A stretch of DNA of 64,000 bases from Escherichia coli (GTDB lineage: Bacteria; Pseudomonadota; Gammaproteobacteria; Enterobacterales; Enterobacteriaceae): assembly GCF_003334255.1 (NCBI RefSeq), contig NZ_QOWU01000021.1; one strand, 5' to 3'. How positions within the stretch are numbered: the first letter of the stretch is position 1; every line of letters starts with the position of its first letter. Below, in pieces: positions 61,475-61,491 of this stretch. The translations under genes and the position numbers were made by a program. The notes beneath the pieces are model-generated. The model was not told the DNA's origin. It searched no databases and worked only from the letters and a program-made list of their open reading frames with translations.

Positions 61475-61491
61475 GGCAAGATTTACGCCAG
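61475..61491 (-). promoter_or_regulatory. candidate sigma-54 promoter upstream of xdhABC: TGGCGT-N5-TTGCC
   Basis: minus-strand TGGC (plus gcca 61487-61490) and TTGC (plus gcaa 61476-61479) at canonical -24/-12 spacing, about 85-95 bp upstream of xdhA ATG. Confidence 0.35.

Follow-up and report, generated by a model that had tools for sequence, protein, structure and literature searches.

A conserved sigma-54-type -24/-12 element and its candidate enhancer dyads upstream of xdhABC in Escherichia coli

The window analyzed here, a 64,000-nucleotide (64-kb) stretch of Escherichia coli DNA, carries the xdhABC operon on its minus strand, with the divergent gene actS (ygeR, ~61837-62592) upstream of xdhA and ygeV lying beyond the other end of the operon (Table 1). 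The reverse complement of the window is 99.964% identical to K-12 MG1655 (NC_000913.3, 2,997,802-3,045,000) and differs from it by two insertions and 9 substitutions. The K-12 record begins xdhA at 61383, giving a product of 752 aa, and the longer 765-aa form is the PGAP annotation in other strains. The upstream ATG of the longer form and the next 13 codons (N-terminus MEAREATATGESC) are kept in frame across ~11 genera, with AAGGGGA or AGGAG placed 5-8 nt ahead of this start codon in all of the genera compared. Trabulsiella and Buttiauxella have CTG or TTG where the K-12 record has its ATG.

Table 1. Positions of the features discussed in the text, in window coordinates.
Feature	Position	Strand	Basis or remark
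ygeV	55932..57717	+	convergent with xdhC; candidate sigma-54 enhancer-binding protein gene
xdhB (58233-59111) and xdhC (57757-58236)	57757..59111	-	ORFs and K-12 annotation; downstream operon genes
xdhA CDS, conserved start	59122..61419	-	765 aa; ORF; PGAP, 2298 nt from ATG 61419
Shine-Dalgarno GAGGGGA of xdhA	61425..61431	-	ahead of the conserved start codon
Predicted transcription start	61463..61465	-	~12 nt downstream of the GC doublet, from fixed sigma-54 geometry
Sigma-54 -24/-12 element CTGGCGTAAATCTTGCC	61475..61491	-	sequence, matrix score, conservation
T-tract and TCACA block TTTTAACGTCATCACA	61524..61539	-	centered near -67.5; candidate CRP-like half-site or IHF site
Dyad 2 ACTCATATTGATA	61589..61601	-	8/10 to TATCA-N3-TGATA
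Dyad 1 TATCACATTGATT	61610..61622	-	9/10 to TATCA-N3-TGATA; candidate enhancer (UAS)
Sister sigma-54 sites	ygeW 55547-55563; ygfK 45731-45747; ygfT 30724-30740		all under ChIP-seq peaks
Recurring dyads	55764-55776; 55862-55874; 55735-55747; 45916-45928; 30546-30558		upstream of the ygeW, ygfK and ygfT/uacT sigma-54 sites
CRP-like sites (TGTGA-N6-TCACA)	45810-45825; 55606-55621; 61524-61539; 30470-30485; 30675-30690		between the dyads and the -24 boxes

Read from the window sequence, the minus strand holds the 17-mer cTGGCGTaaatcTTGCC from 61491 to 61475, exactly where the first-pass annotation had placed a motif with canonical sigma-54 spacing. The layout is CTGGCGT-AAATC-TTGCC, in which the GG doublet (61489-61488) and the GC doublet (61477-61476) are exactly 10 bases apart, the canonical distance, and the boxes resemble those of YTGGCACGR-N3-TTGCW, departing from the consensus by GT in place of AC in the -24 box and by C in place of W after the GC. 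The 3' end of the motif lies 91 nt from the K-12-annotated xdhA ATG, in agreement with the 85-95 bp first given, and 55 nt from the conserved ATG with its Shine-Dalgarno sequence (the PGAP start). The element thus has the placement upstream of xdhA, the orientation toward it and, as detailed below, the conservation among orthologs that are expected of a sigma-54 promoter. The geometry of such promoters would put the transcription start near 61464 and predicts an xdhA 5' UTR of ~44 nt to ATG 61419; a mapped xdhA transcription start was not found in the literature.

The bare core of the motif, TGGC-N7-TTGC, occurs 4 times in the window compared to an expectation of 4.56, which is not above chance, and for this reason the count of bare consensus matches was dropped in favor of a full 17-column weight matrix. 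The matrix was derived from the 135 sigma-54 ChIP-seq motifs of Bonocora et al. (2015), minus the five sites that fall in the window (n = 130). Such scoring had been proposed at first pass, and it makes the xdhA element the best match in the window (15.48 bits), ranked first of ~128,000 positions on both strands and at the 73rd percentile of the 130 genuine training sites; the element scores like bona fide sigma-54 sites and above background. The runner-up matches in the window include the ygfK and ygeW sites, both of which are sigma-54 ChIP-seq sites. The third-best match, CTGTCGCGATTTTTGCA at 10851-10867 (+), falls between these two in score (13.92 bits), carries GT where the GG doublet should be and is absent from the reported ChIP-seq sites.

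A chance resemblance without function would be compatible with the random rate of the bare core and with the 0.35 matches of at least 15.48 bits that both analytic calculation and shuffles lead one to expect in each 64-kb window, but at the right position, on the correct strand of the 454-bp actS-xdhA spacer, the expected number at that score is only 0.0012. The comparison with other genera bears on the same question. One scan of representative genomes provided 28 usable xdhA ortholog loci from ~11 genera (Escherichia, Citrobacter, Kluyvera, Klebsiella indica, Yokenella, Atlantibacter, Trabulsiella, Pluralibacter, Buttiauxella, Hafnia, and Enterobacillus), the most distant XdhA being 71% identical. 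In all 28 loci, the 700 bp searched upstream had the orthologous YTGGCGT-N5-TTGCY as its best matrix match, at 13.5-16.6 bits and 74-108 nt ahead of the K-12-equivalent start. The second-best match was >5.5 bits lower in every locus and >6 bits lower in 26 of them. An alignment of 17 of these sequences (genera or species) has a mean column identity of 40% and 28 invariant columns, of which 10 fall in the -24/-12 element, 10 in two upstream dyads and 5 in a TCACA block. Within the element, TGGCGT and TTGC are invariant over the 17 sequences and the five-base spacer varies freely. This conservation and a published ChIP-seq peak at the site rule out a chance resemblance, for which we see next to no prospect.

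It should be noted that the xdhABC sigma-54 promoter, while correct, is already known from literature spanning 2001-2015. The first-pass annotation was not aware of an established sigma-54 assignment at this position, and in this it was mistaken (PMC2831329, PMC4591121, PMC10602906); the sigma-54 ChIP signal (PMC4591121) and the rpoN dependence of xdhA (PMC2831329) that it had suggested looking for are both published and positive. Lamoureux et al. (2023) credit the sigma-54 promoters of xdhABC and ygeWXY to Reitzer & Schneider 2001 and place xdhABC within the YgeV iModulon (PMC10602906). Zhao et al. (2010) printed the promoter of b2866 xdhA as 'tttcTGGCGTAAATCTTGCCTGctta' (PMC2831329). Row OS29 in Table 1 of Bonocora et al. 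(2015) gives a peak at 2998270 (U00096.2) that exceeds the threshold 11-fold and lists the motif CTGGCGTAAATCTTGCC, the downstream gene xdhA and the flag 'C', for sites experimentally confirmed in EcoCyc (PMC4591121). The catalogued K-12 xdhAp (OS29; EcoCyc) therefore agrees with the window in both locus and 17-mer, and the element itself is identical; what differs is the company it keeps, as ygeV and actS are intact in K-12 and both are frameshifted in the window strain. In-vitro genomic SELEX with the sigma-54 holoenzyme recovered the ygeV/ygeW spacer and did not recover the xdhA upstream region (PMC8743547).

Binding and transcription need not coincide at a sigma-54 site, and the polymerase could be parked at the element while xdhABC is really transcribed from another promoter. 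Most of the 135 sites of Bonocora et al. were without transcription under their conditions, and their RNA-seq under sigma-54 overexpression detected no significant up-regulation of xdhA, the only responders with an upstream intergenic site being glnA, glnH, pspA, pspG, and glmY (PMC4591121); similarly, the YgeV iModulon is inactive almost always (PMC10602906). We nevertheless consider this arrangement improbable. Expression of xdhA rises 4.9-fold when sigma-54 is induced and falls 2.1-fold when rpoN is deleted (Zhao et al. 2010; PMC2831329), and the element, the dyads and the phased TCACA block are conserved at fixed distances across ~11 genera, a constraint that is not accounted for by a silent site. 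Further, no sigma-70-like promoter stands out upstream of xdhA, where one weak 9/12 match compared to 1.4 expected is not above chance. A terminator scan of the xdhA upstream region identified none, and a search of the leader and the intergenic sequence against Rfam returned nothing at E <= 1, and thus no riboswitch or small RNA. The matrix score, the conservation and the published ChIP-seq and rpoN data together back the sigma-54 element first called for xdhABC, and we assign a probability of approximately 0.88 to the motif being the sigma-54 (RpoN) promoter of the operon, a value that covers the proposed enhancer mechanism as a whole.

The surroundings of the element are also conserved, at fixed distances from the GG doublet. 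Dyad 1 is centered ~127 bp upstream of the GG (125-128 bp in 19/20 ortholog loci) and dyad 2 ~106 bp upstream (105-108 bp, also in 19/20), so that their centers are 21 bp apart, or two helical turns; in Hafnia the sites number three and are displaced by 20 bp, with the helical phase kept. The invariant columns of the 17-sequence alignment are T219, T221, A223, and A229 in dyad 1 and C243, A244, T248, G249, A250, and A252 in dyad 2. These are two conserved candidate sites, with spacing fixed in 20 loci, within the ~80-200 bp upstream where the UAS of a sigma-54 promoter is expected. Closer to the promoter, the TCAC of the T-tract/TCACA block starts 39-40 bp upstream of the GG in all 20 loci, and the block contributes the invariant columns A306, T313, C314, A315, and C316. 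Compared to the CRP consensus TGTGA-N6-TCACA, the block matches at 8/10 and has a good right half only. As an IHF site, the conserved -67 block fits the consensus poorly (~4/9 by eye), and the 8/9 IHF consensus matches of the intergenic region lie only on dyad 1 or in non-conserved sequence. An FNR-like sequence, TTGAT-ACGT-ATCAC at 61581-61594 (-), overlaps dyad 2 and matches TTGAT-N4-ATCAA at 9/10; an FNR-box reading of the dyads was rejected, as the right half of this sequence is not conserved even in E. albertii and the match may be incidental. A Fur-box reading of the dyads was considered by eye and not adopted.

Judged from sequence, this layout is that expected of an enhancer-dependent promoter, with candidate sites for activator dimers at ~-130/-150 and a phased site for a co-regulator or bending protein in between. 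In the mechanism we propose, sigma-54 RNA polymerase, whose binding has been demonstrated in the literature, contacts the GG (-24, 61489/88) and the GC (-12, 61477/76) and would wait there as a closed complex. The conservation of the two dyads suggests that an enhancer-binding protein occupies them, and such a protein would hydrolyze ATP and reach the polymerase by DNA looping. The T-tract/TCACA block, 39 bp upstream of the GG, would probably be the site of a protein, CRP or IHF, that bends the DNA or acts as a co-regulator and so sets the loop. The conserved surroundings, a two-dyad enhancer and the TCACA block at 39 bp from the GG, may be undescribed, and the dyads and the block provide concrete sequences for mutation.

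The dyads recur across the gene cluster. The sequence TATCANNNTGA is present 12 times in the window compared to 1.75 expected, a count reached in none of 100 shuffles, and the full dyad TATCA-N3-TGATA, at a match of at least 9/10, is present 7 times compared to 1.8 expected. Five of the 7 are located in four intergenic regions with sigma-54 ChIP sites (xdhA, ygeV/ygeW, mocA/ygfK, and ygfT/uacT), including the perfect dyad TATCATAATGATA at 45916-45928 in the mocA/ygfK region, and TCTCATATTGATA is identical at 30546 and 55764. A perfect palindrome, TATCAAGATGATA, also occurs inside ygeX (53920-53932), ~290 bp from the gene start, and has no strong sigma-54 site nearby.

The ygeW, ygfK, and ygfT promoters resemble that of xdhA in having a dyad of the TATCA-N3-TGATA type, 150-220 bp upstream, with a CRP-like site between dyad and promoter, and all belong to the YgeV iModulon. 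The xdhA promoter thus has a cis element in common with the other promoters of the cluster, as would be expected of a member of a YgeV regulon. The four are not equivalent, as xdhA has the best -24/-12 score (15.5 bits, compared to 13.9 for ygeW, 13.95 for ygfK, and 5.65 for ygfT) and the dyads nearest to the promoter (106 and 127 bp). The CRP-like sites match the consensus at 10/10 for ygfK, 9/10 for ygeW, and 8/10 for the others, including xdhA. Relative to the predicted start sites, their centers lie at ~-67.5, -68.5, -77.5, and -97.5, distances that place them on the same helical face. The number of CRP-like sequences in the window is weak as a signal (35 at a match of at least 8/10, compared to 27 expected). 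Urate degradation is reported to be repressed by glucose, and the spacer between ygeV and ygeW to contain a Crp site (PMC12507026). A weak sigma-54-like sequence (5.9 bits), CTGGCACTCCACGAGCA at 30420-30436 (-), precedes uacT by 58 nt and has both doublets, GG and GC, in register; uacT is a member of the YgeV iModulon and is not among the reported ChIP-seq sites.

The first-pass annotation had pointed to ygeV beside the operon, and the gene is indeed there, convergent with xdhC and frameshifted in the window. In K-12, YgeV has the Pfam domains PAS (161-204), Sigma54_activat (271-438), AAA_lid (444-527), and HTH_8 (547-586). Most of the ortholog loci have a ygeV ortholog convergent with xdhC; in Kluyvera, Hafnia, and Enterobacillus, where the dyads are present, none was detected in the 2.5 kb next to xdhC. 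At second hand, ygfT expression is reported to be reduced in a ygeV mutant. From gene position and the shared dyad, YgeV is the most likely activator of xdhABC, and TATCA-N3-TGATA, which also precedes the sigma-54 sites of ygeW, ygfK, and ygfT, is a candidate YgeV operator.

The promoter could also be sigma-54-dependent with an activator other than YgeV, for example NtrC, which would connect purine breakdown to nitrogen limitation, and the dyads would then bind another protein, for example IHF. Genomic SELEX has placed an NtrC site at xdhB/xdhC (PMC8743547), dyad 1 matches the IHF consensus at 8/9, and the three genera that keep the dyads without a ygeV ortholog close to xdhC could be accommodated by the same arrangement. 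The intergenic region, however, has no NtrC-type TGCACC-N5-GGTGCA site at a match of at least 9/12, the promoters that share the dyad all belong to the YgeV iModulon, two sites separated by two helical turns at ~-130/-150 have typical enhancer geometry, and most genera have ygeV linked to xdhABC. On balance, an activator other than YgeV is unlikely, though it retains a clearly larger share of our estimate than a parked polymerase. Returning to YgeV, the broader proposal that the dyad, as its operator, is the cis code of a gut-relevant regulon for urate and purine degradation, and that strains with a YgeV lacking the HTH domain are unable to induce it, seems to us to have even odds.

The archetypal sigma-54 promoter, glnAp2 with NtrC, similarly combines a -24/-12 element with two dyads >100 bp upstream on the same helical face, where looping is assumed for xdhA. 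The two systems differ in the sequence of the dyads (TATCA-N3-TGATA at xdhA and TGCACC-N5-GGTGCA at glnAp2), in the -24 box (conserved TGGCGT and TGGCAC, respectively) and in the sensor, which is a PAS domain, possibly with GAF, in YgeV and a receiver domain in NtrC. Another sigma-54 promoter, that of prpBCDE with its activator PrpR, is reported to require CRP (Lee, Newman & Keasling 2005). Like xdhA, it has a catabolic role, an adjacent activator gene and, between the enhancer and the promoter, a site of the CRP type; the corresponding candidate at xdhA is only a half-site (8/10). In the Clostridiales, the DioR/SigL (sigma-54) regulon includes the selenium/molybdenum purine-catabolic genes yqeB and pbuX, according to Nie et al. 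(2019) as cited in PMC11448449. As compared by description only, that regulon and the xdhA cluster both combine sigma-54 with a dedicated enhancer-binding protein and homologous purine genes, while the phylum and the activator are different.

E. coli has its own form of the pathway by which gut bacteria remove uric acid, namely the xdhABC, ygeW-ygfK and ygfT cluster, which is being engineered for hyperuricemia (PMC12507026; 10.1101/2022.07.24.501321). Sigma-54 promoters are silent until a dedicated activator fires, which would account for the cluster being almost never expressed in the laboratory.

The genome from which the window derives does not carry an intact gene for the presumed activator. 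Compared to K-12, the window ygeV has a 7-bp tandem duplication of GAGGTCA at 57533-57539, which shifts the frame into a TGA stop at 57540-57542 and leaves a product of 536 residues without HTH_8. Without the HTH domain, that strain is predicted to have weak enhancer-dependent activation or none. Should the duplication be real, the strain would have an intact promoter and a presumed activator predicted to be unable to bind DNA. A 4.8-kb query against 5,426 complete E. coli genomes found neither the ygeV duplication nor the extra base in actS (best matches covering 4793/4801 nt), and the two insertions could be private mutations or assembly errors. The insertion in actS, an amidase activator gene, is an extra G/C in a homopolymer at 62052 (+) that causes a frameshift relative to K-12, and the gene appears in the list of open reading frames as two pieces of 84 aa and 116 aa. 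The last 76 bases of the window (63925-64000) do not align to K-12, which has the ygeP pseudogene and IS2H at this position, indicating that the source strain differs from K-12 in the ETT2-remnant region.
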